A program made the position numbers and the translations under genes. Below are positions 5,226-35,899 of a stretch of DNA of 37,616 nucleotides, piece after piece (the first letter of the stretch is position 1; each line of letters begins with the position of its first letter). The notes under the pieces are model-generated. The model was given only the letters and a program-made list of their open reading frames with translations. It made no database searches and was not told where the DNA came from. The stretch comes from Rhizaria sp. SCN 62-66 (taxonomy: Eukaryota), in the NCBI GenBank assembly GCA_001724265.1, contig MEDY01000062.1:62001-99616 (forward strand), read 5' to 3'.

Positions 5226-6093
5226 ATGAAGTTCTCGTACAAGTTTAGCAACTTGTGCGGTAGCGTGTACAAGGGCGGCAACCTCGTCTTCACCGCCGAC
5301 GGCAACTCCGTGCTCTCGCCCGTGGGGAACCGCATCACGGTCTTCGACCTCGTCAACCACACTTCCACAACGCTGCCGATTGAGAACCGGCGCAACATCG
5401 CGCGTCTCTGCCTGTCTCCCAACGGTAGCACGCTTCTTTCCGTCGACGAAGAGGGCCACGCGCTGATCATCAACCTGTTCAAGCGCGTGGTGCTGTCCGA
5501 GTTCCAGTTCCGCAAGGAGGTCCGCGATCTGCAGTTCTCGCCCGACGGCAAGTACATTGCCGTCACACACGGCGCCCACATCCAAGTCTGGCGCGCGCCC
5601 GCGCTCGTGACGCAGTTTCGCCCGCTGCTGCTGCACCGGACCTACACCGGGCATTACGACGACGTGTTGTGCCTCGCGTGGTCCCCAGACTCGCTCTTCT
5701 TTGTCTCCGGCTCCAAGGACAACACGGCACGGCTCTACTCCCTGCACCCGCTGCCTGGCTTCGTCCCGCTTGTGCTCAACGGCCACCACGCGCGCGTTGT
5801 GAACGTCTTCTTCGGCCAGGCTGACTCGAGCTACGCCGCCACCGACGTCACCTCGCAGCCCGGCTCGCAGATCTACACCGTCGGCAAGGACGGCGCCGTC
5901 TTCGTCTGGTAGTGGGCGCCGCGTGCCATGCCCGCCGTGCTCGCCTACGACGACGCGACGGGGCTCATTACCACGTCGTCGCTGGCGTCGCGCGCGCAGA
6001 AGGCGACGGCGCGCGAGCACTTGATCAACGCGGGCGTGCCTGTCGGCGAGCTCTCGACTTCTTCAGACTCCGAGTCATCGGACTCAAGCTCCA

Positions 6094-6124
<31 letters not shown>

Positions 6125-9100
6125 TAAGAACGAGGATGATGAGGAGGACGCTGAGAAGAAGTCCGCTGGCGACGACTCTGACAAGGATGATGACGACGAG
6201 GATGACAAGATGGCGCGCGCTATCCAGCGCGCCCGCTCTCGCGCCGTGCAGCAGCGGTCCCAGATCACTAAGCGCATGGCACGGCGCAACATGGTCGACG
6301 TCGAGGACCCGGTTGCGGTGTGGAACGCGCTGCCGTTCATCGCGCGCGGCACTTTCCGCGTCCTAAAGAAGAACTTCTGCAATCAGTCCGGTGCTTCGGT
6401 CGTCTGCGCGGCGCTGTATGGTACTGGCGCGGCGCTCAAGGCGTTTGGCGCCGAGCTCGATGAGACAAGCATCAAGGACAAGCAGGCTGCGACGGCGAAC
6501 CTCCTCGTCGTGGGCTTCGACAAGGGCACGTTTGCGCTGTACGAGATGCCGTCGTTCACGCACATTCACTCGCTGTCCATCTCGCAGGAGAAGATCTCCA
6601 CGGTCGCCATCAACGCCACGGGCGACTGGCTCGCTCTAGGCTCCGATTTCCTCGGCCAGCTCCTGGTTTGGGAGTGGCGCTCCGAGACGTACATCCTGAA
6701 GCAGCAGGCGCACTTCTACGATACCTCATGCTTGGCGTATTCCCCCGACGGCCAGCTCATGGTGACTGGTGGCGACGACGGCAAGGTCAAGATCTGGAAC
6801 ACCTCCACGGGCTTCTGCTTCGTGACCTTCTCCGACCACATCGGCCCCGTCACCGCAGTCGAGTTCTCCGGCACCGGCACCGTGGTGTTGTCCGCGGGCG
6901 CCGACGGCACCGTGCGCGCGTACGATCTCATCCGCTACCGCAACTTCCGCACGCTTGTCACACCGACTCCCGTGCAGTTCACGTCGCTTGCGGTCGACCC
7001 CTCGGGCGAGGTCGTGTGCGCGGGCGCCATGGACCCGTACGAGGTGTACGTGTGGTCGCTGCAGACGGGCAAGCTGCTCGACACGCTCACGGGCCACGAG
7101 GCGCCCGTCTCCGCGATGGCCTTTTCGGGCGCGCAGTCGGTGCTGGCGTCGGCGTCGTGGGACCACACCGTGCGCGTGTGGGACGTTTTTGCGGGCAAGG
7201 GCCAGGTGGACGCGTACGACCATCCGTCCGACGTGCTCGCAGTGGCGTACCGGCCCGACGGCCGCGAGATGGTCACGTCTTGTCTCGACGGACAGCTGTA
7301 CGTGTGGGACACATTCGAGGGCGAGCTTAAGTACGCCATCGACTGCAAACGTGACGTGCTGACGGGCCGCACGGGCGAAGACGCGCGGTCGTCGCTGCAG
7401 AAGGTCGCGTCAAACCACTTCACGTCGGTGTGCTACTCTGCAGACGGCAAGTCTGTCATCGCGGGCGGCAACTCTAAGTTTGTCTGCATCTACAATGTCG
7501 CGCAGAAGGTCATGGTGCGCCGCTTCGCCGTGTCCAACAACCTCTCGCTGGACGGCATGCTCGCCAAGTTCAACTCGCGCCACCAGCACAAGGCGTCCGG
7601 CGTGAACCTCAAGGAGGTCGACGCCGACGACTCGGACGGCGAGAATTACGGCGACCGCCGCCACAAGGAGCGCGGGCTTCCGGGCGCCAAGACGGGGCCT
7701 GACTTCTCGTCCCGGTCGACTCCGCCCGAGATCCGCACCAAGAGCGTGCGTTTCGCGCCCACGGGACTGCAGTGGGCTGCGTGCACCACAGAGGGCATCG
7801 TCATCTTCTCGCTTGACGACACGCTCGCGTTCGATCCCTCCGAGCTCGACCTGGACATCACACCCGAGAACGTGCTCATCGTGCTCGGCGAAGAGCACGC
7901 GTACGGCAAAGCGCTGCTCATGTCACTGGCCCTCAACGAGCGCTACCTCATCGACCGTGTGCTGCTCAGCACTCCGGTCTCCGAGGTGCCGCTCGTCGTG
8001 CGCGCGCTGCCGCTGCACCGCCTGCAGCGCGTCGTCGAAGTGCTGGGCTCTCTGGTCGACGCGTCGCGCCACCTGGGTTTTCTGCTTGTATGGGTGCAGG
8101 CGCTGCTCACGATCCACGGGCTCTACATCAAGCGCTCGGGCGCGCGCATGCTTGCCGCGTGCCGCGCGCTGCAGAAGACGCTGGTAGCCAAGCACAAGGA
8201 CATCAGCAAGCTCGCACAGGAGAACCAGTACATGCTGGCCTTCTCTGCGGGCGCGCCGCAGCAGCTGTCGCTGGAGGAGCTCAACGCGCGCTCGCAGCGC
8301 CGGCTGGAGCGGCAGCAGCGCGACGAGGACGAGCTGTCTGCGCGCATGACGGCCACGGCCGCGCCGTCGCTGGACGTCGCGCTCATGGGCGCGATCAACC
8401 TCGACGACCTCAACGATGACGACGCGTCCGACGAAGACGCCGAGGGCGACGCTGAGGACGACGGCGACGGCGACGGTGAGCACAAGACGAAGCGCGCGCG
8501 CACGGTGGACGGCAGCGCGCTGCAGCCCGTTGCACTGGGCGCGGACCGCCGTCGCCGCGCGGCGGGCAAGTGGGACGATGTACCCGGTGCGGAGGCCACG
8601 TTCGACCTGTCGGACGAGGATCTGGACGACCTGATGAACCAGGACGACATGTTCGACGGCTCTGCGCTTGCCAAGGAGCGCAAGAGCGCCGCCGACAAGA
8701 AGGCTCCCGCTGCCAAGGCTGGCAAGCCGACTGCTGCTGCTGGCAAGAAGGGCAAGACTGTATTGGGTGCGGACATGAGCGACGAGGAGGCCGAGATGCT
8801 CGAGTACAGCGGCATGAAGGACGACGACGAGGACGACGACGAGAGCGAGGACGACGACGAGGAGATCGTCGACTACCGCACGCGCAAGGTCCGCGAGGAG
8901 CGTGCGGCGCAGCAGACGGCGCGCGAGAAGCGCCTCCGCGGCGAAGACAAGCCCGCCAAGCAGCGCCTCACGGCCAAGGACGTCTTCGGCGACGAGGACG
9001 ACTTCCACGGCGGCATCCACGACTCCGACGAGGACGACGAGGAGGAGCGCGACCACTCGGGCGACGAGGCCGGCGGGTACCGCAAGAAGGGCTCGAAGAA

Positions 9101-9446
9101 GGATGTGTCATACTCGTGGGAGGAGCAGCGCAAGCAGCGCGAGCGCGCGTCCGTCTTCTCTGGCAAGCCCGGCCGCGACTCGGACGACGACGAGGACGGC
9201 GGCGGCGGGTTCGCCGAGTTTGCGCAAATCGACGCTGAGTTCCGCTCGCGCGAGGGCGGTCGTGGCCGTGGGCGCGGTGGCGCGGGCTCGCGTGGCCGCG
9301 GCGGAGGCCGTGGCGGCGGCCGTGGCGGCGGCCGTGGCGGTGGCGGTGGTCGCGGCGGTGGCCGCGGTGGCAGCGGTCGCGGCGGCGGCCGTGGCGGCGG
9401 CGGCCGTGGTAGCGGTCGTGGCGGTGGTCGCGGCGGCCGCGGTTGA
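5226..9446 (+). CDS. PWP2: PWP2/UTP1 WD40 SSU-processome protein, 1406 aa, read through one in-frame TAG (5910-5912)
   Basis: The N-terminus MKFSYKFSNLCGSVYKGGNLVFTADGNSVLSPVGNRITVFDL and the downstream GQLLVWEWRSETYILKQQAH, GTVRAYDLIRYRNFRT and Utp12-like C-terminal domain are all PWP2 hallmarks. ORFs 5226..5912 and 5928..9446 are in the same frame and separated only by TAG TGG GCG CCG CGT GCC. Stop TGA. Confidence 0.93.
5910..5912 (+). other. In-frame TAG in PWP2 (probable sense codon)
   Basis: GTC TTC GTC TGG TAG TGG GCG CCG = VFVW*WAP, at the end of a WD40 repeat. Confidence 0.85.
9255..9443 (+). repeat. RGG/GAR low-complexity coding repeat at the PWP2 C-terminus
   Basis: About 63 codons of GGRG-type repeats (GGC/GGT/CGT/CGC) ending at the TGA. 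Confidence 0.9.
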
Positions 9447-9977
9447 AGTCGCTTGCAGCGACGGTATCGCTTTGTTAAAGTGTCTTGAACCACCGATTGC
9501 AGCACATTCAGGGCCTGTATCAAGGCCGATTGACATAGTATATCATATATAATACATTTATTTTTTTAAATCAAATCACAATAACACCCACTCTTCACGT
9601 ACATCTCAATATACTTTCTTGTTTTACATGAAATGAACGAATGACGACTCGTTTGTGGTAGCAACAAAGGGTCAGATTAGTCAGCTTTCGTCTTTCTAAA
9701 CTATTGCTCTATCGACTGTCCCCGTCGTCAGATTGTGATAACAATGGTGGCCTTTGAGCCAAATTTCAAGCTCGAGAATAGATCTATTTTGATAGTTCAT
9801 TTCCGCGTCATTGGGTACGTCATATTCACTTGCCACTGTAGCGACCAGAGTAGTGTTGGCAACGGCCTGGGACATGACACGTTTCGTTGCTGTTGAGCAT
9901 GTGCCAGGGACAGAATACAGTGCGCTCTCTGATTTGATATGCACACTGCATACGTGATGTGCCCGCCGTGATGCATT

Positions 9978-11878
9978 ATGTTAGACATTTCATTCGCTCT
10001 CATTAACACCCCAAATCCCAAGACTCCGCCAAACATCATTCGAGCTATTCTTTCTGTTCTCACAAATGTCGCAATACTCAACATCACCCGGGGCACGTGT
10101 AGCCCTAACTTAGTGATATTTCTAACACTTGCGGCAGCGTGCGTTTTTTACTTCTGGACAACGTCATATGTGGGCATTTCTTGCCTGACTTCTGAGTCAG
10201 CGGGCGAATCGGTACGATACATGCACCTTTCATATTTCGCGTCATGTACCACATTTTTGACACCCGACATAGTTCCTCACATACCACAGGAATTATGTTT
10301 ATTCTAATTTCCAGTCTGAGTTTGGCGGCGTGTGTATGATCTATCGGCTGTCCCCCGCCGCCCAGAACCACGCCCTCGTGCGCGCTCTCATGCCCTGCCC
10401 CGACGCCATCGGGGGCTTGTTTGACTCACACAGCGCTTCCGGCAGCGCCGCGTGCATCCAGGCCTTCCCCATGAAGTACTTCCGCAAGACGCTGCTGACG
10501 ATTGTCAAGAGTAAGAAGTCGTCTAACGAGCTGCGGCGGGTCTCTGTACTGCTCGACTTAGACACATACGAACAAGACCGCGTTAAAATGTACGTTTATG
10601 CCTCGCAGTCGCGGTGAACTGCACACGAAAAGATCGGATTGAAGTCCGACTACACAGGTTATGTGATATTAATTCTCACGTGTCTTGTTGAACTCTTGAT
10701 TTAGCCCGCTTACTGCCCCCGCGGACCTCGCACACCTCGACGCGCTGCGCACAATGTCCACTCTGCGCGCTCCAGAGAGCTGGATCTCGATCTCGTTCAG
10801 CTCCGGCGACGAGGCCTCGGCCTTTGCGACGGCACTGACCGAGGGCATTGACTCGCTGCGACAGGATCCGGCGCGCGCGCTGTTTGAGTTTGCCAGTCAG
10901 CGCGGGCGCTTCCGTGACCTGATGCCGCTGGGCCTGGCTGCGCTCGCCGTCTTGGCCGCATTCATGATGGCGCACATGAAGCGGCTTACCTTCTGCTCCG
11001 ACGACGACACGGTGAGCGTGGTTGTGGACGCTATGTTGCGTACGCTGAGCGAGCAGACGCTGCCGCTGCGCACGATCGAGCGCGTCGAGATAATTGGTAA
11101 GTTTAGACTATCTACGCCCACACCTCCTCATTTGTCCCATCTTGATTTGATCAGCCTTCGTTTTATTGTTGTATGTATTCGTGTATCTCCGCGGAATATA
11201 AAAAAGCTCACGTCACATCGAACTTTTCTTTGCAAACACTTGATTTGGTGACAGAAAATGTCAACAAGAAGAAGAAATCAACGTATTATCTCGCGCTTAT
11301 TTTCCGCCCCGACCCCGGCGACACCACTGTCGCCTCACTCAACGGCATCAAGCCGTACCGTGGCCCCACTGCTTCTCTTCCGTATATTGCCACGGATAGC
11401 TTGTTCGCATTGCCGCTGATGGACAACACGCAGTACCGCCACCGGCTTGTTACCGTCGCGGCGCGGCTGCAGTCGTGGCTGGCTCAGGCCGCGGCGCTGC
11501 GACGCGAGCGCGAATGGGAGCGCGCGCTGGCGGCCGGGGAGATTATTGCAACTGCTGCGGACTCTGTTGGCGGCGGGCGCTGTGTTGGGTGCGAGTCGAC
11601 CGAGGTGACGATGCTGTTCCTGCCGTGTCGCCACCTCATTACGTGTCATAGGTGCGTTATGTTTCGTCACTGTCACGCACACTTTCTTGCGGTTCATCGA
11701 CAGTTTTAAACGCTCTTACCCGTTTTTTTTTCCCCTGCCTTCTGATGCTCATATTCTTTATATTGCAATTATCATTTCTTTTTCCTTTCTGTTTCGTATC
11801 TGTAGTTGTTCGACAAAGTTTGATGTATGTCCAGCGTGCCAGCGCAAGATTGACAGTCGTTTGACGCTGTATACTTAA
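9978..11878 (+). CDS. Membrane-anchored C3HC4 RING-finger protein (putative E3 ligase), 5 exons, ~456 aa; start codon uncertain
   Basis: Exons 9978-10211, 10315-10589, 10705-11096, 11255-11651 and 11806-11878 join in phase (1371 nt). Splicing rebuilds CVGC-ESTEVTMLFLP-CRH-LITCHSC-STKFDV-CPAC-QRKIDSRLTLYT*, an IAP/MUL1-type C-terminal RING. Two hydrophobic segments (LVIFLTLAAACVFYFW; LMPLGLAALAVLAAFMM). Stop TAA. Confidence 0.8.
10212..10314 (+). other. Spliceosomal intron 1 of RING gene (103 nt)
   Basis: GTACGA...TTCTAATTTCCAG, AT-rich, phase 0, joins two open frames. Confidence 0.7.
10590..10704 (+). other. Spliceosomal intron 2 of RING gene (115 nt)
   Basis: GTACGT...CTTGATTTAG, phase 2, restores the frame into ORF 10754. 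Confidence 0.8.
11097..11254 (+). other. Spliceosomal intron 3 of RING gene (158 nt)
   Basis: GTAAGT...GGTGACAG, phase 1, AT-rich. Confidence 0.8.
11652..11805 (+). other. Spliceosomal intron 4 of RING gene (154 nt)
   Basis: GTGCGT...T-rich tract...CTGTAG, phase 2. Removal completes the RING motif. Confidence 0.9.
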
Positions 11879-12134
11879 CCAATTTATCACATTCAACAAA
11901 CCAACAAAATACGAACGAATTTTAGGTTTACTTAGTTTTCGAATCGACATACATAATCTGATCCGCATCCAACATACAAATCCTGTGTTATTCATTAATC
12001 ATTTGAATGCATGGATGCATGTTCGTTCCAAGAAGCGCATATTAGAATCTGTTCAGGCTCACGACATGGCCACGGGACTGTAAAGCGCACGGCGCAACGC
12101 AAGCTTTGTCACACCAACCTAGTACGCACACGGC

Positions 12135-13874
12135 TTAACGCTTCAAGAGTTGGCCAAATGGAGACCCGGCGCATACGGTTGCGTCCAACACACCGATGAA
12201 TTGCAAAAGACGAACAAGTGCGGAGTGCGCGGCGCCCATATCGCTACTCATAAAGCAGTCGTGCATGTCTACAAGCAAATCCGACCCGCCAGCGGCCACA
12301 AATGCCGCTGCGACAGGGTTCCATGAGGTTGCACCCTTAGGCACATTACGGTCTGGCACAGTGCCTGCGAGCACGATCATCGACCACATCACCAGCAACG
12401 TCTTCGCAAACCCATCGCCAGTCATATAGACGACGCCGCCGTTCGATGAAGAAACTCGCGGCAACAGCGCGAGTGCGCGGAGAAGAATCTGCACAACCTT
12501 GCGCTCAAGCAACAACGAGACAAGATCGGCAGCTTCCATGGGCGAAATTGTCACTGTGTAGACATCGTCAGAGTCATCGCCGTTCTTGTCGCAATTGGTC
12601 AAAACAGTTGATTTTGTACACATCCCCAGTAGCGCTGCCAAAAGTGACAGCATGCCAGTGTGCGCGGGCCTGCTCAACAGCTTACCGTTTGTCATGGTCG
12701 GCAGCAAAGAGCGTAAAATATAGTCCAATGTGCCACTTTCAAGAAACCACCGCACGTTCCCAGACCCTGCACGCGCTGCAATCGCATATACCGCCATCCA
12801 GTCTTCTAAAAATGAGCTATCGATGTTTCCAGAGACGAATGCCGCATTTTCAAGCGCTGCAAGGCGATTTGCAGTGAAAATCTCTGCGAGTGTAGCAGGT
12901 GGCAATAGCTCGGCGGAGCTTAAAAGTTTCAACAGGGGCCGGCGCGGAAACATATCATCGATAAGCAGTCGCAAAATTCGGTCAAACGTGTCACACTCCG
13001 CAAATTCAGCCAGTGCGGCGAGACGCGCCTCCATGTCAGTTGCTCTTGGGGAGACACTGCACTTCCCTCTGGCTTCGGAAGTGGGATCATCAAGGTCGTC
13101 GAGACCACCTTGCTGTTTTCTACAAACTGCATCTGCATTAGCTGTAAAAATGTCCCTAAGCGCCTCCATGCAGAGCGCTGATAGCTCTGAGTGGACCCAT
13201 CCTTGGGCTTCGGAGTCGTAGTGCAACAACGTAAGAGTTAGCGTTTCCTTCAGCACCAACAGCGCGGGCACCAACAGTGCCCACGGCAGCGCCGGCGCTT
13301 TATGCACCCACGCAGATATCGTTTTCAACGTCTGGCGATGCAGCTTGTGCAACTCTGCGGGCGCAAACCTCTCACTCACGTTTTCTGCTGCGTCCGCGCC
13401 CTAGGAGGAGAGTAAGTTGAGCTCATGAAGAAAGGCGCTGAGCATGTCAATAACGCCGTTCTCGGCTGCGTCAAGCAACTGCTGGCCTGGAGACAACGCA
13501 AAATGCAGAAGTACATCCAATGCGCGCATGATCGTTTTACACTCCCAGTTCCCGTTCACAATATTCTCACAGATCATCACAGGAAGGCCGGCAGCTGCAA
13601 GTGCATTAGATCCCTCAGTCGTATATGAGATGTTGATCATTACACGCAGTGCGGACGCCATGCGATTCAGATCATTTTGCGCACAATAGTATGCAAAATA
13701 TGCGCTGATGGCGTCTACTACATCGTGCATCATGCATATTTTGACAAGTTTGCGTTGGAGGAAAGCGCTCACACCGAAGAACACTTCTTCCAGTTCCATC
13801 ACGCCATCGTTCTCTGAAGCCAAGCTCTATAGCTCCGATAATGCAGAGAAAAAACCTTCATGCGTGAACGGCAT
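12135..13874 (-). CDS. Armadillo/HEAT-like alpha-helical repeat protein, ~579 aa, with in-frame TAG at 13401-13403 and (if the ATG at 13874 is used) at 13827-13829
   Basis: ORFs 13401..13823 and 12135..13379 are in frame and joined by TAG-GADAAEN. Upstream the frame reads MPFTHEGFFSALSEL*SLASEND from ATG 13874. ARM-like motifs: ALRVMINIS...NALAAAGLPVMI, AAENGVIDML, FLESGTLDYIL, FVAAGGSDLLVDM. Stop TAA. Confidence 0.65.
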
Positions 13875-14368
13875 GTCAATACACACTTGGCGACACAACT
13901 TATTACTCTTGGAAACGTTGTCTCAGGCAGTGAGCGGTTGGAAACGACACAATTATCGACCAGTGGGTATGAGTCCAACTTTGAGAGTGCAGTAGTGGCA
14001 TCAAAATCTGTACAGGTGAGATATTATTATTAAAGAGAAAAGGATGTCTATACATTTTACGCAACGATCACTCGTTTCGAATAAACGATATCAGCATGTC
14101 GTGCATCGGTGCTGAATAATCTGTCAATCAAATCGTGACCGCTTTGAGTAATGCAAAATGTCGTTCGTGGTTGTAACAGTTGTTGACATCTAAACATAAC
14201 ATCTAAACATACAAAAGAGTCCGCGGGTTTGTCCGTGTTCGGATATATGTGCGAGCGTCGTTGCGTGCGCAAGCCGTGTACAAACTAGTATTAGGCTAAT
14301 GATACCATGTATTGTCAATAAGGACAAACGATTATAATAAACATGTAGACTGTGAAACATAAAACCTA

Positions 14369-17300
14369 TTAATCTCCAAGCAATGCGCCTGCAGCGTGCC
14401 TCTTACCTTCAAGTGCTGCAGCTGACTCCGCGGCAACGGCTGGCACGAGCGCGGCAGCCAATTCTTGAACACGATCCATGGCTGCGTGCAGCTCTACGGC
14501 GTGCACAGCCACGTGCTCACCACGCCTGCTCCGCAAAAGAGCGCTCAGCCGGCACATTTCATTCTCGATTCCTGCGGTTGCGCGTTGCAACGCGGTTAGC
14601 TTAGACCGTAGTGCAGCTTCGTCGGCCTCTGCGGCTGCCGCGGCCTTCGCAACGTCAAGGGGACCTGTCGATTGATCGGACTCGACTGATGCAGAGAGTT
14701 CGTGGACTGCAAGTGCAGCCTGCTTCTCATTCCATGCAAGCGCCAGCGCCGCCTCAATGGCACGTTCCTGGTCCTGCAGCTGTCGCTCATCCTCCAGCTC
14801 CGCAGCACTCATGGCGACGTCGCCGTAAAGAGGCCGTCCATAAGCCGCTGCAACGGCAGCAGCATCTGCAGCAGCGTCAGCGCCAAGTTCTGCCACCACA
14901 GCATCTACATCGGCATCACTAGGCGTTACGTCCTTTGGTGTGGGGGACGGTAGTGCAGCCCAAAGCAGACGACGAACGACGCGCGAAAGCGAGTCCCAAA
15001 CAGAGGCCTCCTGTTCAGTTGCCAGGCCGCGCGAGAGCATTTCCGCAGACGTTGCCGGCGCAGCCGCTGCTGTCGAGGAAACACCACGGTCGCGTAGAGC
15101 AACGCTATCCGGGTCATCTTTAGCAAGCAGCGGTGCCTTGTGAGGCTCCCCTTCAACCACAGCAACAAACTGACGGACGTGGTCAATGTTACCTGCAGTG
15201 CGGCGAACGATAGTCCATTGCTTCGCTTCACGTTGCAGTTGAGGCAAAGCAGTGCGCATCTCGGCCTTGGCCTGCAAAAGTGCGGCCTTCTCAGCCGCGG
15301 CGGCGCGCAGTGATGCAGCAGCGGTGCGGGCAGCAGCGCTCGCAGATTCGGCGTCGCGGCGCAGTGACAGCACTGTCAGCATGAGCGAGGGCAGCGTCCG
15401 CGCCCAGGGGGAGCAGAGAGCCTGGCGCAGGGATGCAGCATTGCCACTTTGTCCATCGTCAGAAGCACTGCCGTTGACCGTACTGCGCGCGACAAAAGAA
15501 GCGACCCCGGGAGCAGCAAGGGATGATACGGTAATAGAAGCCAATGCAGAACTGACGCGCACACTTTCACCAGAAAGCGCGGGCACGGAACCTGCAAGGG
15601 GCAAATGCACTCGTGCGCGCTCAGCCCGAACGGCAGCAACACGGTGTGAAGCAAGAGTGGCCGTTGTAGTGTGCGTGTGTGACAGTGCAATCACATGTGC
15701 TGCAGTGTCATTAGTAGCGGCCTCCTCATCGGCACGTAAAGCAAAAACCGTGCGTTCCGTAATCCGACGCACATGCGCGCGGAAAGAAGCCTCCACTGCC
15801 GCAGTAGACGCTGTGCTTGGTGTCGACGGTACAGCGCCCGGGCTAGTCGGAGCAATCGTAACAAGTGCAGTTGCAGCAACTGAGGCAGGATACATGGGGG
15901 TAGCCAGCCGTGATGCCGCAGAAGCTGCAGCAGCAGCAGCGGTGCCCGGACGCGACATCAGCGGGTGCGTTGCGCCTAGAGGCACATCAGTCAGTAAAGC
16001 TGCTAGCTGTGCTGCGAAACGACTCTGCACCGCAGTTTCATCGCCTGGTGTAGCTGCGTCGGCAGTCTTCGAAGATGAGGCTGAGAGTGGGGCCAACATT
16101 GCGCCTAACGCGCGCGCTAAGCCTGGGAAAGCTGCATCAACAGCGGTGAGACCCGAACCAACTTCAGCAGCAGCTGCCGCCTGCTGTCGCATCCCACCCG
16201 CGTTGATGACGCCGCGGGATCGCGGACGCGGTGCGCCCCCGCTGCTGGGGCGCATCGGAACACCGAAGGCATGCTCACCTGTCAGAGTTGCCGTCGCCAC
16301 ACCAGCACGCAGTAGCTGTTGAACAACCATAGCTGTGCGAGGCGACATGACACTAAGTGGCGCGCGTGAAGTGACCGCTAGTCCCGTGTCGGCGCTCCCA
16401 TCGGTGGGCAGACCTTCGGTAGAGTTCGTAGCTGCGTAGTCAAGGACGCGATTCACCGTCGCCTGCGCCGCATTGTTGACAGTGCGCTCAAGTTCCACTA
16501 GCGCAGTCGCCGCAGCAGCACGGAGCTCGCGCTGTGCGGCGCGGGCACCACGGAGTCGGTCGTGCCAGCGCGCTGCAGCCGCGCGCGCAGTGTCATCCGC
16601 GGCAGTGAACGACGCTGAGGTCGCAACGCGCAAAAGCGGACCAACGGTCAAGTCGCGCAGCGCGAGCGGGTACAAGTAGCCTCGAGTGCTCGAAGAGCCA
16701 GCAGCTAATGCTGCTGCAGCGCCAGGGAAGCCTAACACCTTATGAAGAGCAGCGGTCGATTGTACTGCAAAGTAGGATGACGCTGCTGCCTCAGCAGTTG
16801 CAGCAGCATATTCCGCGGCACCGCGGCGCAAGAGTGCCTTGGTAAGACGCACCGTGGGATGCGCAGGACTGAGCGTCGGATGAGTATTGTCAGCTGCAGG
16901 AAAAGCGAAGAGTGGAATCGTGGGCGCAATCGCTTGTGTGCGTGCGTGCGTGGTCGAGACGAGGCGCGCAAAACGAAGAAGAGAACGGGTGAACGCAGCT
17001 TTCGAGAGGGCGACCCACTCAACAGGATCAGTCGCGGATGCCAGGTGCGGTGTGCGCAACAACGCGGCCACCGTCATGGTTCCCGCGTCAGCTGCTGCAA
17101 GCGCAAGCTCAACAGCAGACACATCAGTTGCAGAATCTGCACGAGCAAGTGGAATAGAGGAAGCTGCAGTCAGCATCGTGACTAAGGCTGAACTCGGGGC
17201 AGCGGCGCGCGCGGCAGCAGGAGCAAGTGCACCGGACAAGGAGACGCGACTCAGAGTGGCCAGTGCCGCTGATGCTGCCTCAAGGGCAGCCATGTATGAC

Positions 17301-23300: not shown

Positions 23301-26300
23301 TGGTAGTAGCGCAGGCGCGCAAGCAAAGACATCTGTTCGGCGACATAGGCTTGTGGAGTGAGTAATTGGAGCCCTGCGACAAGTAAGGCCTGAGCGGCAG
23401 TAAACCTCCCAATACGAAAGGCTGAGGACAGCGCAGCAGGATCCACCGAGACGTAGGGACACAGTGTGTGCGCCACAATATGGTCGATGTCGCGCGAGAA
23501 ATGCATAACTGAGCCAGGGAGCGCGGTGAGAGTCTCCTGGTCGGAGTCATCAGAGTCAGAGTCTGACGACTCACTTGCTGTATCATGCACATCACGCTCA
23601 TGGCGTCGGAGCATCAGTGTGTCAGCAATCAAAGCGGGTGGCAGAGTCTGGGACTGTCCCTGCAGAACGCCGGGCAGCGCTGACGAGCGCGACGCCGCCA
23701 GCAGCGGCAGCCGTAGCACGGGCAAAAACACGAACGTCGACGCCGATAGGTGGCCAGCTGAAAGCGGCACTGCAGCGGGTGGGGGCACCGGCCGGGGAGC
23801 AGAGGCAGCAAGGATCGCAAGACGCTCTGCAGTTCCGATGGGCTGTGCGCGCGTGGAACAGGGCAAGAATCCGGGATCACCTGGTAACATTGGCGCTGCA
23901 ACACACCACGGTACAGTGTTAATTCCGCCAGCTGCGGCAGCAGCGGCGGCCTCGCCGGTGCTGGCACCGGCGGTGGCTGCTGCAGCACCCGGCGGAAGCA
24001 ATGACGGGGGCGGAGGTGTGTAGACAATGGTACCTCCCGCAGTGGCACCAGGCAACGAATCAGTCGCGCCGGGAGCCGCAAGCGTACCGAGAGCGCTGCC
24101 AGAAGCACCCAGCGTAAAATTAGTCAGGACGGTCGACGAGTAATCAGCACGCGGGGCGCCGGGGCGGCCCAGAACCGCCGTGCTTGTCACAGTTGTGACG
24201 GTGATCGCGGTTGGCGGGTACAGACCCGCAGCAACAGACGAAACGCCATCAAGCCCGTTCACGGGCCATGCAAGTGCGGCTGCAGCAACAGTGGTGCTCA
24301 GACCGTTGCTGGTGCGCGCTGTCGGTGCGTTCGCACTCGCCGTGGACGCGATGAGCGAGGCAGCGCTAGGCAGAGGCAGCGCTGTATCAGTCGCATGGGC
24401 AAGAGCAACCAACGTTGCAGCGCTATCGGCAGAACGAACTGTACGCGCCGCAAGCATGGCAGCTGCAGTGCATAACGCGGGCCAAAGGGCAATACGTCCA
24501 GAGTCTGGAGGCTCTGATGCACGGGGCGCAGCAAACGCAGACAATGCTGACAATATGGATGTCGCAGGAACCAATGGGATGACAGGTGCAACGGGAGCGC
24601 GCGTTGAACCACGTGCGGTCGCAGCTGCAGGTGCTCGTGTGATAGAGTTACCCATGAGTTCTGCAGCAGAAATCTGCGGTGAAAGTGCAGCCCAATGTGC
24701 CGCTAACGCGGCAGACGCAGAGCCTGGCCAAGCAATATCGCATGCCGCCGTGCGCGCTGCTGTGACAGCAGCAAGCACAGCAGCATGACGCTCACTACGC
24801 GGCTGCGCCAATGGTGCATAACAAGAATGATGCCAGAGACGACGACGCAGCAACGTGCTGTAGAGTTCGTTATAAAACGCCGCCATCGTCGACGCGCGCC
24901 GTTCAAGTTGGGACAATGGTTGGTATGGCGGTTGCAATGCACCGTTCGAAGCTGTTGCAGAAGCGGCTAACGTCACCGCATCGGCAGCAGTGCGCGGCGG
25001 GCGATCGGCGGGTGCAGCGTTGGCTGGTGCAGTGCTGCTTGTTGACACTGTCGATGGCCGTGCCAACATCGAGGAACCAGAGATAGGAGCAAACGATTCG
25101 ACGCTTGTGGCTGTTGCCGCAGCAGTCGCCCCGCCTGAGGGAACAAGAGGTGGTCGTGCCTCAGCTGGAAGTGCTGCGTATGGCGGAACAGAGTGAATGC
25201 CAGAAAGCGCAGGCGCGGGCAACAAACGCGCGAGCCACTGAGCGGGAACAGGGGTGCTTCCTGCATGCGCGGCAGCGTTGTAGGCATCAAACGATGACTT
25301 GTTAGTGGTCGCCAATGATGTCACTCCTTTAGGCCCAACAGGCACATGAACCCGGGCGAGAAGCGCTGGAGGAAGTGAGCGAAGAAGTCGCACCCAGCAG
25401 AGAGTGTGCATCTCCATCACAGTCGTCGCGGCAGCAGTTCCGTTAAGCTGTGCATCAATGACGCGTTCAACTGCTGCCGCAAGTAGGGCCATCGGGTCAA
25501 CACCGGAGCCGTCGCCGACAGCCACTCGCAACGCAGGAGGATGCATCAGTCCGAGCGAGCGCGCGTACGTCTCAGACGCAGACACAAACACGTCAGCGCC
25601 GGCGGTAGCACCGCCCATCGATGAGGAAACAGACGCGGACGCTGTGATAGGACCCATTCCCTTTGCATCAGCAGCAGCGCTGGAAGAGAGCATCGCTGAG
25701 GTCGCCAACGATGCAACAGCCGCTGGCGACGTCAGTTGTGCTGACAGTGTCGCAGCAGTGCTCATAGTTGACGCTGATGCGCTCGTAGCACCACCCTCAG
25801 CAGCAGTAGTCAATGTACTCAATGGCGTCGGGTAGCCGATACCGTGGCCGTAACCGTTAGAAACGGGAGCCACAGTGCCGTATGTCTGGCCCACGGGAGG
25901 CGCGTTAATGAGCGCTTCGTGGAGTCGCACCGCGATGTTAAGCGAAGCGTTCTGGGCAACCTGAGCAGCAAGCACAGTGTGTGCTGCGGAAAACCACAGC
26001 TGCAGCGCCTCACGCGCATCTGCACGAGCTTCCTGGCGGAGGCGCGCAGCGTCTAGTTGCTGTCGTGCATATGCTGACTCGACGGCCAGAACCTCTGGAC
26101 TTGCACTATCTGATGCGAGACCTTGTGTTGAAGAAAGCAAAGGCACGGGTGTGGAAGACGATCCCGAGCCTAAGGCAACACCAAGAGAAGCAGTTGAGCT
26201 GTTGACGGTGTGCGGGGAGCTCTGCCAAATGCCTGAGCTAGTATTGGACCCAAAGACACCGACAGGGCGGACATGAGAGCCATGAGCACGCGTTGAGTGA

Positions 26301-29300
26301 GGAGTGTTGAGTCCACCCAAAGCACCCGAGACGCTGTCGCCAAAACTCGTCCCTTCGCTCACATCGACGTTCAGCGGCGTCATCGCAGCACGCCGCACGA
26401 CACCGTCGCCACCAACCAGCTGCATTTGCAGCGAGCCAATGCTGTGTGCGGGTGACGGGTGCGCTAACGCCATCGCATCTGCTGTATCAAAGCGCAGTAG
26501 CGGTGATTCTTCGGGGAGCGAAAGCCCAGACCCACCGGGCCGCGGCGCTTCGTCTCCGGTGGCAAGACCAAACGTGAACGCAGTCCCACGAGGACGCGCA
26601 GCGGTGGGCGTCGTAATACCATCGAGCCTCTGGCGACTGAAAAAAGCCATATCACGGGTGTCAGCGCCGATTGAGAAAAGTGACACACCCTGACCAGAGG
26701 CATTTGTCGCCGATGTGGGTGCAGCCCGCGGTGTGCGGAAATTAGACAGCAGTTGCTTCTTCGCTGCAGTGTCTGGATTATTATGAGTGGGCGTAACGCC
26801 GACTTGAGGGGTAGTGATATCGTTCTCAAGCTCATCAAATGCATCAGAACCCATTGCCGTCGCGAAAGCGGCAGGGTAATTCGCAGCAAGCTTGAACGGC
26901 AGCGACTGTGGCATGGTAGCCGCGGTCGCAGCCGCAGCGCATGTTAACAGCCGGATGGCGAGAAGACCCCCACGAGCGCTATCAGGTGCGGGCAAAAACG
27001 CGCGCGCCGTGGAGCTCGTCCCTAAACACCTCTTTTTAGAGACCCAGCCAAGAGAGCTAGCCATCGTAGAAGCCGGGTGCATCGGGGCATCCGAAAGGAA
27101 AACGGTTGCGTCAAGGAGCGCACCGGTGCGAACCAAAGGCCGCGCGAGATCGTATTGAAGGACATCTTCGTCTCCACTAGCATCGCCTTCCTTGTTATCA
27201 CAATTAACGCCGTTGTTGCGTCCGTCAAAACTTGGGAGTGAATTCGAGATATCTGAATCCGAATCCGATCCTGAACTGACGAGCCCGCTTGCCGGGCCAC
27301 TGGCAGCGTTGGATGCGCTGCTGCTCGAGTGTGCGCGGCGGCGCGTGCGGAGCGCAACTCGCGTGAGATCCCTCCGTGCAGTGTCGAGGCGCAGCACGGA
27401 ATCCACCTGAGCCAGCTGCCACAGAGAGCACGGCAGCAGCTCTTGCATCTCGGCCACAGCAAGCAAATACGGCAGGCGCGACACAGCCGGGCGCTCCCAC
27501 GGCGCAGAAGGAGAGGGGCACAGGGCCGCAACGGCTGCAGAGTCTGGCAGTATCAGCACACGCGGTGCAGGGAACAGATGGCTCTCGCTCATCGCCCCGG
27601 CTGAGTCTGTGACAGAGAGGGGAGCATGTGCGCGCGCAGCAGACAATGCGGTAACCCACGGCCAATGCGAACGGGCGTGCGCAGCATTGCCCTGGCCTGG
27701 AGCCACGGTGACAACGCCACTACGAAGACCACCGCCAGCAAGCAGAATCTCGCCAGCGCGCTCACCAAGCAGCATTGCACGGAGTGCAGCTGTTAACGCA
27801 AGCGCGTCCGTAGCGTTCGCAGGCATCGACAAGTGCGCACGGGCTCGTGGTGAGCAGATAAAAGGCGTTAAGTGCCGTAACACACCGGCGCGAAAGCGCG
27901 GCATATACAGGCCGTTGCTGGCATTGTTGCGCAGAACGCGTGCCGGGGAAATGGGTGAACGAAGACGCTGAGGGGCAGGCAGCGACAGGTGGCTGCCCGG
28001 CGAAAACGCAAGTCTAGCGCTAGGCACAATCCCAGAAGAGGTCGTAGAACTAATCGCGGCCGCAGCTGTTGCGTCGTTAGCATCACCATCAGTCGTCACA
28101 GTGACCGGGGTCGGCGTCGTCATCGTTGAAGTCGCACGCGGTGCAATGGCACCTTCAGCAGACTCGGCGCGCGCGAGCCACAGCGGGTCGACAAACCAAG
28201 AAGGTAGAACTGTGGGCACGTCAGTGGGCAGACCCGCGCGCGCGGCCTGAGTGCGATACGCGTCCTCAAGCACCCAGTTGTCAAACACAGCGAGGAGAAG
28301 ATCATCGCGCAGCTGTACGGCCGACAGAACCGACGCAGCAGTAAGCGCGCGGTCGGCAAGGGTCTCGCGGCGGTACAGAGCCGAAGCGACGCTGGCCGCG
28401 GGCGTCGAGTCGTAGAGCGCGTCAGCTGCCCACGCCCAGGAGGGACCCAGACCAGACCGCTGTGATGCGCCCATAAGCAGCCGCGCACGCGACGGCAGTG
28501 AGCGCCGGTCGCGAGCATGCGCATGAGGCACGGAGTGCGGCAACCGGTGCTTCGGGGCGAGCAATGCATCGGCTGCCGCGGAGGGCTGCGTCAGCGTCGG
28601 CGACACTGCCATAGAGAGCAGGAAGCGGATGTGCGAGCCACTCAGCAGCGAGTGCGCCACCGAGACGGCGCGCGCCGCGGTAACGCCAGCGCGAGCCCCT
28701 TGCTCGGAGGGCATAGGCGCTGCAAGCGACGGGTGGCGTCTCAGAAGTGCCTCGCGCTGGGCAAGATCGGAGAGCGCGGTGAAAGAGAGCTCACCAAAAG
28801 TAGGCAGCCGAACGCGCGCAGCGGCAGTGTGCATCGACAATGGGGACGCCAGGCAAGCGAGCAAAAGCGAAGCGCGCTGCCCATCAGCTAACGAGCGCAG
28901 CGCAGCATCTCCGCTGCCACCAGTGTAGTAAGGAACGGCGACAGTTGAAGATGACGCAGACTCGATTGCGCTGTTCACAGCAGAACTATTGGCGGAAGCC
29001 GCGCTTGGAGCGGCAGGCGCAGGCGGAGCACCAGGACACGTGATAATAAACGAAACGGGGTCGGGTGTGTGTTTGGATCCTTTAAGGGCCACGGACTTTG
29101 TGTTGTTCGTAGCAACTTTTGAGTCTCCGCCGCGGCCGTCGTTGTCAGGCAGCCCAAGTGGCTCGCGTAACGGCGGGAGTGCATGGGAGTCGAGTGCAAG
29201 TCCCTGAAGACGTACAACCATGTCCTCAGAGGCATGGTGCTCGGCCTGCAAGCGCAGCTGCAGCAGTGCGGCACGCGCAACACACAGCGCGTCCCACGCT

Positions 29301-32300
29301 GGCTCTGACCCGTAAGCAAGAGTGGAGCGGACAGGACCCGACGTGTTGGCGGACAGCACAGCGGGGCCAGTCGGTGCGTGGGGCGTCGCCGCTGCGTTAG
29401 GACGCGCACCTGAGGATGACGCGACGGGCGCGTTGCTCGTCTGCACACTCGCCATCATAAGCGATTGGCGGCGAGCAAATGCCGGCACCGCATTACGCAG
29501 GGACTCATCGATGACGGCATCTGCGGCGGCGTCGAGCGAAAGCAACACCGTCAATGACGGGAACACTTCGAGCAGTCCCGTGCGCACGCGCCGCCACGCA
29601 GGAACACAGTCGCCGTAAAGAGATGTGTAGCCGCGCAGGGGGACACCCGATTGAACATGCGTCAATACAGTTGCGTTCTGCGCATCAGAAACACGCAACG
29701 ACGACGACAATGTGACTGTGGGCACGCTTGTGTCAAGGTTCAGCTCAGCAGAGAAGCCAGCATCACCGTGTAGCTGCGCGCCGTCATCCGACCGGTGCTG
29801 CATCGGCGTCAGTGCGGCCGGCATTGGGAGCGTTTTAAGGCAGTCCAGTAATGGGTCGCGAGCGCGAGTGTCATCGGCAGGTTGCGGAAGTTGCGGCACG
29901 GCGGGCAACACGCGTGAATTACGCGCGCGCCGGCGGCTACGTGCAATCCGGTCCTTCAAGCCCTTGTTGACGCGCCGTTGGGGTTCATCGCCATCGTCGT
30001 CACCATCATCGCCGTCGCCACCAGGCGTCCCGCGCTCGGGCGAGAACGGAATCGTAAGCCGCACGCGGCCAATAAGGCCGTCTGTGGGCGAAGATCCTGG
30101 ATCGCCTTGAGGCAAGGTGTCCTCCTCGCGCTCCGGCAGAACCTGCAGACGAGAGGCAGTCGCAGCCAGACTAATACTGCCACCCCTGCGGTGGACCGCT
30201 CTTGCGGGAGGTGCGTGGTTTGCATTGATAGCACCGTCATCACGCACCAGAGAGCTGGAGCTGGGGCGCGCGACAAGTGATCCTGAATTAGGGGCAGGCA
30301 GATCAACAGGCGAAGTTCCAGGCCGTGTGCTACTGGCAGTCGACGCGCGCGGCCGCCGGAGGGTGCCCGACACAGATCCCGCGCCCGAAGCGGCGCCACT
30401 CTCGTTATCAGAGCCAGCGTCATCGCCGTCCGAACTGGCAGCAGAGGACGGGGAGCAGGGCTCCAGGTCGAGCGCGTCCTCAGGGATCGTGTGCGCAAAC
30501 ACGCGCCAGTCGTCCTCGGGCACGGCCATTTCGCGCGCCTGACTGCGCTCGCGCAGAAGCTGCGCTGCGTACCAGTGCTGCAGGAGCGCGCCGCGGGAGC
30601 GCAGGGCTTCGGTGTGCGCCGCGTAGTGGTGCGTGAAGTACCGGAACGGGCGCGCTGTGCTGCCGGAGAACGCCGGCCCGCCAGGGGCATTCACCGCTGC
30701 CACTGATGCTGTGGCAGAGGGCGCGGCGGTGGACGCTACGGCAGCCGCCGTAATGGCAACAAGGGGGTGCGAAGGAGGCGCTGAAAGAGGCGCGAAGTTG
30801 CCTTGTTCAGTCAACATGCGCAAGGGAGCCAAGCGCAAGGGCGCATGCGGCAACGCGTGTGAGACAGCAAAAAGAGGTGACTGCGCCAGCAGCAGTTGCA
30901 GTGCAGACTGTGACCACAGCGGCGATGCAGATAGCGCGGCGGCCACAGCCGGCGCGGAGCGAGCAGACCGTGTAGTGCGGGGTGGCGACGCGGTCGCGGT
31001 GGTCTCACTTGCGGCCGCGGGCGGTGCGGGGGAGACTGCATAGCGCGAGAGCAAGGCGGCGGGGTCAGCGTCGATCTCGGGCCGCGCGGACATGACAGCG
31101 ATAATCTTGGCCGCGACAGCGCGCTGTGCACCAGGCACGATGGCGTGCTCATAAACAGCGAGCCACATGTGCACCAGCGACGCCTTAGCGCGCGTGAACG
31201 CGTACTCAGCCTCAAATAGGTCTACGATGATGGCCCAGCGGTCGAGCAAGTCGGCGTTGACAGCAGCCAAATGCGCACGCGTCTGGTAAGAGCCGAGACG
31301 GATGAGCTGCGTCTCAAGCAGAGCAAGGTCGGCCAGCGCTGCAGTGTACATGATCGCAGCACCGTTTGCGTCAATCACGCCGAGACAAGCGTGCGAGAAG
31401 GCGTCGACGTCGGCTGTGGCACCGGGAACAGCGCCCTGTGAAAGCGATACCGCAGCGGGATGCGCGTCCTCCTCAGCCTCGCCCTCGCCCTCGGTGCCGG
31501 GCAGCCAGGTGTACGAGTCGTGCTGGGCCTCGACACCGCCAAACGCCATGAACGCATGTGCGTCGCGCTCGCACGAATCAGGCGTCACGGCCGCAGCGGA
31601 GACGGCAGAGCCGGAGACGCTGCCAACCCCGCCCGTGCCCTCGCTCGCGCCCTCGCCAGACGCCGCAGCGAGCGCGGCCACAACGCGCGCGGCAATCTCA
31701 TCACTCTCACTGCCGCTAGCGGTGGTAAAGGCGGCGCTAGACGGCGTCGCAGAGGCAACCGTGGCGCCACCCGCGCCCGACGCGCCCCATGCTGCACATA
31801 GCGCGCTGCGTGCGGCACCGGCGCCGGAAGAAACAACGTCAACACGCGCGCCCGCGGTGGGCGGCCCGCGCTCCGTGGCGTCGATTGCGACGGCGGACTG
31901 GAAAGCAGGCACGAGTGGCGGGAGCCCGGGCCGGCGCGCGCGCGCACCGTCAGCGGCCGCGGAGGGCGCCGCGGGCGTGCGCTGCGTGGCGGCGTCGAAC
32001 GGAGTCGCAGCAACACGGCCTGGTGCGCGCAGCGTGTATCCAGGCGCAAACTGACCGGGGTCTTCGCGTGGGAAACCGTAATCGTCGAGAGTGAGCCGAC
32101 GCTCAACTGAGCGGAAGAAGTTGAGCAGGTGCAGTAAACGCAGCCGCAACGTGCGCGCGCGCAGCACGCGGAGCTGCAGCAGCGTGGCCACTTCGTGCGG
32201 CTGCGGCGCGCCGTCAAGCAGCGCGGGCAGCAGCGCGGCCAGCGCGGGTGGTGGCGCAGGGAGCGCAGCAGACGCAAATGCACTGGGCGCAGAGGCCACG

Positions 32301-35300
32301 GCAGGCGCGCCGCTGCCGAGCCCGACGTTGGAGCTGGCGGGCGTGCCCGAGGCTGGCTCCGTGCCGGTCGACGCCGCAGAGCCCGTGGTGCCAGCGCCGG
32401 TGGTAGCAGCCGGCGCTGTTGCAGCCAGGACCGACAGCGGCGTGCCGTGCGAAGACAGCGTCGCCAGCAGCGAATCCGACACCGGCGGCAGGCCCGCAGT
32501 GCTGGCGTCCTTGCGGGCGGCGCCTCCCGCAGAAGCAGCTGCAGCAGCAACTGCCGAGGCCGCTGCGGCGTGCCCGCCACGCATCGCTATGACGGCCTAT
32601 TCGCCAGCAGCGGCGCGGAGATACATCTCAGCCGACGCCGTCGCGTGCGCCGCAGCGGTCGCCACATAACCGCCAGCCGCAGCGGCGACGCGCGCGGTCA
32701 CGGTCGCGGCGTCGGGCGCGGACAGCAGCGCCCATTCAGCGCGCAGAAGCGGGTCCAGCGGCGTCGCGGCGACAGCGGCCCACGCGGCGGCCACGCGCGG
32801 CGGCTGGCGCGGGGCCGGGAAGCGCACGTACGGGACCCACAGCGACGGCCGCAGCACGGCGCGGCGCACGGCGAGCGGCGAGGACGTGGCGCCCTCGGTT
32901 GATGCGGCAGTGGCACTGCTGCTGCTGGCGTCTGCGGTGGCCGCGTCGGCGACGACGCCCGCCGCGCCCGCAATCGCGGCGGCGGCTTCAGCGGCTGCGA
33001 CGAGCCCAGTGTCGACGAGCAGCGTGCCCTGCGCGCGGAATGCCGCGGTGAAGCGCAGCGCGACGTGGCGCGCAAGAGGGTGACCCTGTTCGTAGCGCAC
33101 CGCGGTCGGCACGCGCACGCCACGCAGGCGGCACAGCGCGCGCAGATGCTCTGCAGCCGACAGCGGGAGCAGCGGCGCTGACGCGGAAAGCGGGGCCGCG
33201 CAGCCCGTGCCGATGCGCAGCGGCAGCGAGAGCAGCCGCAGCAGGTGCAGATACTCGGCGTCAGCCAGCGGCACGTGCGGCGGCAGCGGCGGGAGAAACA
33301 GCGCGTCGGGCTCAGGCCGCGCGGCCGTGACGGCAACGATCGGCGCACCCAGGCCTAGTGCGGCAGCAGTATCGCCCAGAGGCGGCCAGGCCGCGTCAGT
33401 CACGGCCCGCAGCGCGCCGCCCGACAGCGCGGGCGCGAGCGACTCGAGCGCGAGCAGGAACGCGTGGGTACGCGTGACCCACTGCCCGTGCGCGTGTGCC
33501 GCGCCCCGCGCGCCGGTGGCGGCGGGCTGCGGCAGCGGAAACGCCGAGGGTGCGTGCTGGCTCACGGGCGCGGGCACCGCAACCACAGCCGAGCCAGTGT
33601 GGCTCGCGGTGCCAGCGGCGGCGGCGTGGGCGTGGAGGCCGCGGGGCGTGGCGGGCGGGGCGATGAGGCCGAGCCACTGCCACCACGACTGCCAGCGCGG
33701 GGCCGCGTTGCTTTGCGCGAGAGCGTGTACGATCGCCGCGGGAGATCCGCCACCCGTACCGGTGCTTAGCGCGTCGCCGCCGCTGAGCGCGCGCGAGGCC
33801 GCGAAGAAAACCCCAGGGATCGTGGCCCCGGGAGCGCCGGCCCCACGGCGCAGTGCCTCGGCGTAGCCCCAAATGCGGTCACCCAGCAGCAGCGGCACGG
33901 CGCGCAGACGCTGCAGCAGCGTGCGCGTGGGCAGCGTGGCGTTGAGCTCGGGGATCCACCAGCGCAGGAAGAGTGTGATATCAGATGGCATGAACTGCAG
34001 CGACAGATCGCCCGCGCGCTTCGCACCGCCCGCAGCGGCGGCGGTCGGCGCGCGCACCATCGTGGGCGCAGCGGGGCCCTGCTGCGGGCGCGCGTCGCCC
34101 TTGTGCTCGTCGCCCGTCGAGTTGTTATTGCTGCGCGCGTTCTGTTGCTTTGAGGCGCGCGCAAAGAGGATCGACCCCGCGGCCGCCGCGGCCGCTGAGC
34201 CCGCCACGCTGCCCCGGCGACCGCCCCCGGGCTTGCGGCGAGCGCCCGCGTCAGTTGCAGAGGTTTCGTCGCCGGAGTCGGGCCGCACGCGCGCCGGCGC
34301 GTCGTCGTCCGCGTCAGAGTCGGAGCCGGCGTCGCCAAGCCCGTCGCCGCCGCTGCCGCTGCCGCAGCCGAAGTCGCCCTCGGTGTCATCATCGCCAGCG
34401 CTGCCAGCGGCGGGACCGCCCTCGCGCAGCACGGGCTCAGGCGCCGAGTAGCGGTCACGGTAAGGTCCGAGCACGTCCTCTTGCAGCGCACTCGTCTCAT
34501 GTGGGGCCGTGAACATCGCGCACAGACCCACAGTGATGTCACCCAGAGATAAATCGCCAGACCGCGCGCTCGCTAGCCTCGACGAGGAACCAGAGCCAGC
34601 GCCAGCGCTGCCGCTCGGACCCGTGCTCGCGCCCGCGCCCACCGTGGAAATGGGACGGCCCCCGCTCGTGCTAGCGGGCTGCGACGGCGCAACGCCGATG
34701 AGTTCAGCGGGGATGCCGCGCGGGAAAAGCCGTGCAACGCGTTCGCGTACGTCGAGATAGTCGCGCTCCACGGCGCGCACTGTGAGCGCGAAACGGCGCA
34801 TAAGGCGGTCCAGCGACGGCGCTGCGTGGCCCCGCGGGCGGCCGCTCGCGCTCGTGCTGTTGCGTGGCAGCGCAGAGGAGACATACGCGGCGGGGACTGA
34901 GGCGGAGGCAGTGGCGGCGGGGGGACGGTGAGAAGCCGCATGCGGGGGTGGCACCGCAGGGCCATATGCACTCGCCGTCGCAGCAGCTACAGTAAACCCC
35001 GGCTTGGTCGCACTGCTCGCCGCGCTGTGGGCAAGGCCTGAAGGCGTCGTGTGCGAGGTGTATCGCGGGAGAGCGGCCGCGATGGTCTCGGCGAGCACGA
35101 TATCACCGCGCGCGACGGCTTGCCGCAGCAGCGACCAGCGGCGGCACAGCCTCGCCTTGAGCAGGACCAGCGCAAGCATGTGAGAGAGCATAAACCGCGC
35201 AATCGTCACGGCGTGCGCGGCGAGCGTGTTGGCGGGCGTCTGCACCAGCCGCAGCTGCTGCGCGGCGGCGTCGGTGGGGAACCAGCTACCCGCCGCAGAG

Positions 35301-35899
35301 GCCGCCGCGCCCTGTGACAGAGCGCTGAAAGCGTGCGGGGGGCGCATAACGCCGGCGAGAGTGCGCGCGCGGTCGTTTTTGAACTCGCTCGCTTTCGCGA
35401 CGCTGCCCAGCGCGGCGGCGGCGGACGCGGCCGCGCGCGCAGCCTGCAGCTGTGCTAAATGAGCTGCGCCTGCTGAGGAGGCCTCGTCCGTTCCCGCGCC
35501 GGCACCAGCGCCTGTGGCAGTGCCGGCCGAGGACGCGGCGTTGGAAGCAAGCGGCGCAGACGCGCCCACAGCGCCTGTGGTGACAGCGGCTGCGTTAGTG
35601 GGGTCCGGGCTCGCGAACTCGGCGGCCTGAGCGGCGAGTTGGCGGTGATAACCGCGCAGCTCTGCCTGGAACGAGCGGGTGAAGTCGAGGTTCTGCGTCA
35701 GCTCGGCAAGCAGCGGGCTGCGTACGGGGTCATCCTCGTCCAGCAGCGCTGCCAGCGACGCAGGCTCCCAGTGGGATGCCATAGAAGGGAAAGAGGCGCC
35801 CGCAGACGATGCGCCGCCTGCGAGTCCAAGCGCCCCTTCGGCACCATCCTCAGCAGAGGGCTGGCGCGGGGGCTTCGGCGTATGTTTTTGAGTTGACAT
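14369..35899 (-). CDS. Giant CCDC162/DUF4549-like protein, ~7,176 aa, intronless, read through three in-frame TAGs (32597-32599, 22409-22411, 22310-22312)
   Basis: ORFs 32597..35923, 22409..32584 and 14369..22267 share one frame, with gaps of 12 and 141 nt that contain no TAA/TGA. First ATG is at 35899 (MSTQKH). Blocks I recognise as CCDC162-like: LKARLCRRW, RDYLDVRERVARL, DITLFLRWW, WVPYVRF...LDPLLRAEWALL, LLNFFRSVERRLTL, IMYTAALADLALLETQLIRLGS, DRWAIIVDLFEAEYAF...YEH...MSARPEID. C-terminal coiled coil. Stop TAA. Confidence 0.75.

Follow-up and report, generated by a model that had tools for sequence, protein, structure and literature searches.

Is UAG a sense codon in the organism behind the assembly of Rhizaria sp. 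SCN 62-66? The question arises from a stretch of 37,616 nucleotides (nt) of its DNA (contig MEDY01000062.1, positions 62,001 to 99,616; hereafter the window), in which three long genes are interrupted by TAG. The initial annotation of this DNA had counted six in-frame stops in these genes, all of them TAG, had found no in-frame TAA or TGA beside them, and had listed seven gene ends, of which five were TAA, two TGA and none TAG. Our recheck of positions and frames bore out all of these counts (Table 1). The annotation had concluded that UAG is a sense codon and that UAA and UGA are the stops, and this is also the explanation that our analysis supports best; the data agree poorly with mistakes in assembly, with introns, with gene decay, with editing and with a common readthrough signal. 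Hence, this organism very probably translates UAG as an amino acid. In nuclear codes, UAA and UAG nearly always change meaning as a pair, and lineages in which the two are uncoupled are few.

When TAG was read as X, the PWP2/Utp1 gene (1406 codons), an orphan gene (579 codons) and a giant CCDC162/DUF4549-like gene (7176 codons) were open over their full length, with no in-frame TAA or TGA in 9,161 codons. In total, the six intronless coding sequences (CDSs) of the window contain 10,594 codons, with six in-frame TAG, no TAA and no TGA; the remaining two frames of the same CDSs contain many TAA and TGA. The TAG count alone is only suggestive, because six out of six would be TAG with a probability of 0.025-0.033 if single substitutions from the codons of these genes had made the nonsense codons. 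The lack of TAG among seven gene ends is not significant by itself. As the annotation had pointed out, the first TAG of the orphan gene is internal only if translation starts at the ATG at 13874; another ATG lies at 13799.

The TAGs in PWP2 and in the giant gene lie inside intact CDSs with homologs, one of the features by which UAG-only codes are recognised. PWP2 of the window is colinear with its counterpart in locus L001, and the alignment runs without gaps over the TAG, with 70% identity before it and 61% after it. The site reads TGG-TAG-TGG in the window and TGG-AAG-TGG (Lys) in L001. Yeast Utp1 can also be aligned through the site, where it has Glu. When short relatives of PWP2 were sought, 12 of 257 candidates matched, including P0146 with Lys at the TAG site. 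The closest short relative, P0145, stops ahead of the site, probably at an intron.

For the giant gene we found 102 homologs besides itself. DUF4549 was detected in one of four scanned, and CCDC162 is what we take to be the name of the family. BLASTP with masking confined the matches to the second segment of the gene (87 of the 102 homologs). A profile of 45 full-length homologs recovered a single domain at amino acids (aa) 599-1622, with an independent E-value (iE) of 4e-71, which spans the TAG at aa 1101. This shows contiguity across the TAG rather than an independent discovery, because the query used to find the homologs included the region. Homolog P0156 matched the giant protein in seven blocks in the same order, from aa 1014 to 4598, over all three TAGs. 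One block (aa 4537-4607; P0160, P0156 and P0184) lies 3' of the TAG at aa 4530 and upstream of the next ATG (aa 4645). The giant gene is about three times as long as its full-length homologs (1900-2900 aa), with Ala/Ser-rich insertions as padding.

Contigs from other samples were compared with window positions 3000-22999 in four of the 13 listed runs; the TAG at 32597 lies outside this range, and sites uncovered in X5, X8 and X9 count neither way. A contig of run X4 (study P3), apparently a DNA run judging by its even depth, matched 12642-14222 with 0 differences, including both orphan-gene TAGs. A contig of run X9 (study P6; depth 3.2) matched 5880-6056 with 0 differences, including the PWP2 TAG, 5' of which it holds 30 letters, one below our bridging rule. 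In addition, public gene-caller proteins terminate exactly at aa 228 of PWP2 (seven contigs), at aa 1100 (P0133 and P0134; four contigs) and aa 4496 (P0135; four contigs) of the giant protein, and at aa 157 of the orphan protein (P0139-P0142; eight contigs). Four of the six TAG sites are thus also ends of public fragments, each in 4 to 8 contigs, although these contigs may have common source data. One contig with these genes is 99,470 bases long. Protein-cluster look-ups found no strain with a different codon at a TAG site. Among the polyA contigs of run X5, those at 6552-6797, 7599-7961 and 8985-9288 are about 86% identical to PWP2. They possibly come from a close relative, whose codons at the TAG sites could reveal the residue.

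According to the initial annotation, the host lineage could not be identified from the window, a view that the PWP2 tree overturns. The tree combined the window with nine loci and with 35 of the 120 listed homologs (45 rows in all), and no named sainouroid was among them. The window and L001 were sisters (100/100), within a 14-row clade (100/100) that also holds the rhizarians Bigelowiella, Amorphochlora and Nonionella. Judged by the tree of this one gene, the host is an uncultured rhizarian. Two viral scans gave no match, and in a scan of prokaryote genomes two WD40 proteins matched distantly (20-28% identity). Parts of positions 2500-9500 were present in 11 runs of six studies, and the labelled ones were taken from bioreactors, wastewater, sludge or fuel cells. 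Run X1 may be the source of the window itself; runs X7, X10 and X11 (share <0.2) were excluded from this habitat evidence.

Four open reading frames (ORFs) of L001 contain no in-frame TAG in 4,797 codons, where 2.7 would be expected at the rate of the window (P = 0.066), and one L001 ORF of 1364 codons, without an assigned family, appears to end at TAG. These sequences hint at the standard code in L001 and at a recent change of UAG, which probably took place after the two lineages had separated. Near its PWP2 gene, L001 carries an intronless gene resembling those of non-ribosomal peptide synthetases (L001:17267-22684), with condensation, AMP-binding, carrier and hexapeptide-repeat domains. Another locus in the comparison, L034, has a PWP2 sequence (L034:1-1890) with four in-frame TAG and no TAA in 630 codons, and a CAA:CAG ratio of 10:10. 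It groups (100/100) with two loci that have both TAA and TAG in frame. The residues aligned with its TAGs are mixed, and the chance of a TAG-only pattern is about 1 in 16; a further UAG-only code, in a ciliate-like lineage, is possible.

In the window, TAG is as rare as AGA (six each in 10,594 codons), and five of the six TAGs fall in two genes with relaxed codon bias, as would be expected of a poorly supplied codon. We consider it likely that UAG has been fully reassigned to sense in the nucleus through a tRNA with anticodon CUA, leaving UAA and UGA as the only stops. Such a tRNA, one base change away from an ordinary tRNA, would pair with UAG and not with UAA, and eRF1 would recognise UAG poorly. 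UAG is a rare codon here, found mainly in genes with weak codon bias. We infer the mechanism from known cases, in which UAG but not UAA is read by a CUA tRNA and the response of eRF1 to UAG is weakened (PMC5304391).

Which amino acid UAG would encode is less clear. Only the PWP2 site, one of the six, can be aligned with confidence. Its column, counted by motif anchoring, was readable in 109 of 120 homologs, a set rich in fungi, and contained Lys 62, Arg 33, Asn 6, Asp 2, Gln 2, Ser 2, Ala 1 and Glu 1. Scoring the column on a tree, following Panek et al. (35 rows, three dropped because they lacked the motif), gave Lys 0.41, Arg 0.26, Gln 0.057, Glu 0.051, Ser 0.028, Leu 0.014 and Trp 0.002. UAG cannot be reached from Arg by a single anticodon step. 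A precedent-weighted prior of our own choosing turned the score into Gln 0.41 and Lys 0.33. An Ala of P0160 opposite the giant-gene TAG at aa 4530 was not used, as the alignment there is gapped and uncertain. In our rough judgement, Lys is the foremost candidate, closely followed by Gln; Glu and Ser rank equally at some distance, Leu lower still, and any other residue is improbable. The specific code in which UAG means Lys and UAA and UGA are stops is a tentative possibility; a tRNA-Lys would then have exchanged its anticodon CUU for CUA, a recent event with UAG still rare.

Several observations weigh against reassignment. The sample is small, with six sites and seven gene ends in one window, and TAG is far rarer here (three of seven genes) than in published UAG-only cases. 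The tRNA scans found no genes in the window and eight fetched loci. No independent contig covers the giant-gene TAGs among the pieces listed, and none of the RNA pieces listed for the polyA run X5 (32 of 1,832) overlaps a TAG. In the giant gene, the blocks past aa 4530 are weak individually (iE 0.001-0.005 against the one giant protein), and the 45-sequence profile did not detect the distal blocks. Moreover, the evidence on the residue conflicts. The neighbour context at the other five sites is slightly in favour of Ser and against Lys and Gln. For the split of TAGs over genes, weighting by codon bias makes Lys 3.5-fold more likely than Gln; without weighting, Gln is ahead of Lys 3-fold.

The alternative that survives best, though we think it unlikely, is a dual meaning of UAG, in which a weak suppressor tRNA reads UAG inside genes while UAG still ends some genes. 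Since UAG is so rare, such a state retains some probability; a low rate of TAG stops is compatible with only seven gene ends, and the 1364-codon ORF of L001 that seems to end at TAG suggests that the change may be recent. However, none of the seven genes ends at TAG, and leaky decoding would be expected to harm both the gene with three TAGs and a conserved ribosome-biogenesis gene. Published UAG-only cases are not dual, according to PMC11687900.

Decay of genes under the standard code is improbable. The TAGs would then have arisen by nonsense mutation, either in genes that are decaying or duplicated or in alleles collapsed during assembly. TAG is indeed the likeliest nonsense product here (share 0.54-0.57), and a second, intact PWP2 copy may exist elsewhere in the genome. 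Yet six nonsense changes would all be TAG with a probability of only about 0.03, and would imply about 241 substitutions and 8-16 frameshifts, where none was seen in 9,161 codons (P ≤3e-4, with assumed indel rates). Furthermore, the GC content at third codon positions of PWP2 is still 0.87, and identical TAGs occur in samples of other studies.

We give just as little credence to the TAGs being 3' splice acceptors of in-frame introns with lengths that are multiples of three. The organism does have introns, and we found three in the RING-finger gene of the window (115-158 nt, GC 0.39-0.43, donors GTAAGT, GTACGT and GTGCGT), two of which end in TAG. A pyrimidine-rich stretch precedes the TAG at 13401, with a GTA-starting site 114 nt upstream, and the TAGs at 22409 and 22310 could both be lost with a GT...TAG span of 120 nt; the peptide between these two scored 23 against P0160, equal to the shuffle mean of 23. 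The real introns, however, are AT-rich and never a multiple of three long, whereas GC upstream of the TAGs is 0.44-0.71 and no donor of the real type lies at an in-frame distance of 150 nt or less from any TAG. The TAG at aa 1101 has non-consensus donors only, and any such intron in PWP2 would take out conserved residues for which the alignment to L001 and yeast is free of gaps.

Both stop codon readthrough and adenosine-to-inosine (A-to-I) editing exist in eukaryotes. Programmed gene-specific readthrough of the TAGs, or editing of UAG to a Trp codon, is similarly implausible here, even though both processes favour single stop types. The observation in the annotation that the codons after the TAGs share no readthrough motif holds: all six 3' contexts differ. 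The six 100-nt downstream stretches lack unusual folding (z -1.24 to 0.90), and the window and L001 gave no Rfam matches. Trp occurs in none of the 109 homologs at the PWP2 column, where its site probability is 0.002.

Finally, sequencing or assembly errors are hardly credible, despite the thin X9 contig and the absence of the giant-gene TAGs from the listed independent contigs, because three TAGs recur with 0 differences in two other studies, and errors would not yield TAG exclusively without frameshifts.

The closest published parallel to reassignment in the window is exLh, a rhizarian of the Sainouroidea in which UAG encodes Leu, with 384 UAG in 71 genes and the fewest in ribosomal protein genes (PMC5304391). 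Both cases concern rhizarian nuclear genes with TAG-only interruptions, ends at UAA or UGA only, and avoidance of UAG in strongly biased genes. Unlike the host of the window, a wastewater organism that uses UAG rarely, exLh is insect-associated and uses UAG heavily. In addition, Leu is disfavoured at the single alignable site of the window (0 of 109 homologs; 0.014 against 0.41 for Lys). UAG encodes Gln, as in NCBI table 15, in Iotanema spirale, Hartmannula sinica, Trochilia petrani and Protocruzia tuzeti (PMC11687900, PMC5304391, PMC9161772). These cases share with the window a change of UAG only, with UAA kept as a stop, and Gln, the commonest outcome, is plausible here as well; they belong, however, to fornicate and ciliate lineages, and at the PWP2 site Gln is present in two of 109 homologs and is about 7-fold less likely than Lys. 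Phyllopharyngeans carry UAG in 78-91% of genes (PMC11687900). The same paper cites three phyllopharyngean TARA metagenome-assembled genomes (MAGs) with UAG = Leu, and Scotinosphaera with UAG = Ser. These are likewise UAG-only reassignments, the ciliate ones also known from metagenome assemblies. The host of the window differs from these ciliates and this green alga in being a rhizarian; Leu is disfavoured here and Ser is possible. In Oligohymenophorea sp. PL0344, UAA encodes Lys and UAG encodes Glu (PMC10553269). UAA and UAG are thus uncoupled there too, and its nucleus has suppressor tRNAs similar to Lys tRNAs. In contrast to the window, where UAA is the main stop, both codons are sense in PL0344, with Lys on UAA.

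Our literature search found neither a second rhizarian UAG-only case nor UAG = Lys, although it covered few subscription papers and tables of rhizarian transcriptomes or MAGs may mention one. Nor did it find free-living rhizarians reported to have a code of this kind, and term look-ups in bioRxiv 2025.03.26.645542 found no mention of the genetic code. If UAG is indeed sense in the window, this would be the second rhizarian case, probably an independent one; the organism turns up repeatedly in treatment plants, so that samples could be obtained. Its low UAG use, together with an apparently standard sister, would make it possible to test whether codon capture or an ambiguous intermediate applies. 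Should UAG stand for Lys, the code would itself be a new one, and would represent an early stage of codon capture. Annotation of this organism under the standard code would be wrong, because public protein sets hold these genes as truncated fragments.

Table 1. Genes of the window and their in-frame TAG codons (window positions).
Feature	Position	Strand	Remarks
MTR4, 3' part	2..2005	+	no TAG; end TAA; control gene
succinyl-CoA transferase-like gene (SCOT)	2614..4224	+	no TAG; end TGA; control gene
PWP2/Utp1 gene	5226..9446	+	1406 codons; intronless; one TAG; end TGA
PWP2 in-frame TAG	5910-5912	+	aa 229
RING-finger gene	10330..11878	+	start approximate; three inferred GT-AG introns; no in-frame TAG; end TAA (11876-11878)
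orphan gene	12135..13874	-	579 codons; two TAG; end TAA
orphan-gene in-frame TAG	13827-13829	-	aa 16; internal only with start at 13874
orphan-gene in-frame TAG	13401-13403	-	aa 158
giant CCDC162/DUF4549-like gene	14369..35899	-	7176 codons; intronless; three TAG; end TAA
giant-gene in-frame TAG	32597-32599	-	aa 1101; within one profile domain (aa 599-1622)
giant-gene in-frame TAG	22409-22411	-	aa 4497
giant-gene in-frame TAG	22310-22312	-	aa 4530; weakly conserved block aa 4537-4607 after it
Ala/Pro/Lys-rich repeat protein gene	36426..37118	-	no TAG; end TAA; control gene

The orphan gene had been labelled ARM-like in the initial annotation, but it matched no Pfam family, and a homolog search among 8,000 candidates returned one match, its own fragment. 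The RING-finger gene is a spliced gene amid otherwise intronless ones, and its RING motif is completed by the third intron. The ORFs at 10754 and 11173 were rejected as separate genes, as both are parts of this spliced gene. PWP2 has an acidic, RGG-rich C-terminal extension of about 390 residues (8250-9446) past the region matched by the yeast and human proteins, and PWP2 of L001 has a similar acidic tail. The product of the gene at 36426-37118 (230 aa, no Pfam family) has a hydrophobic N-terminus and Ala-Pro-Val-Lys-type repeats, and is possibly secreted or located at the cell surface.

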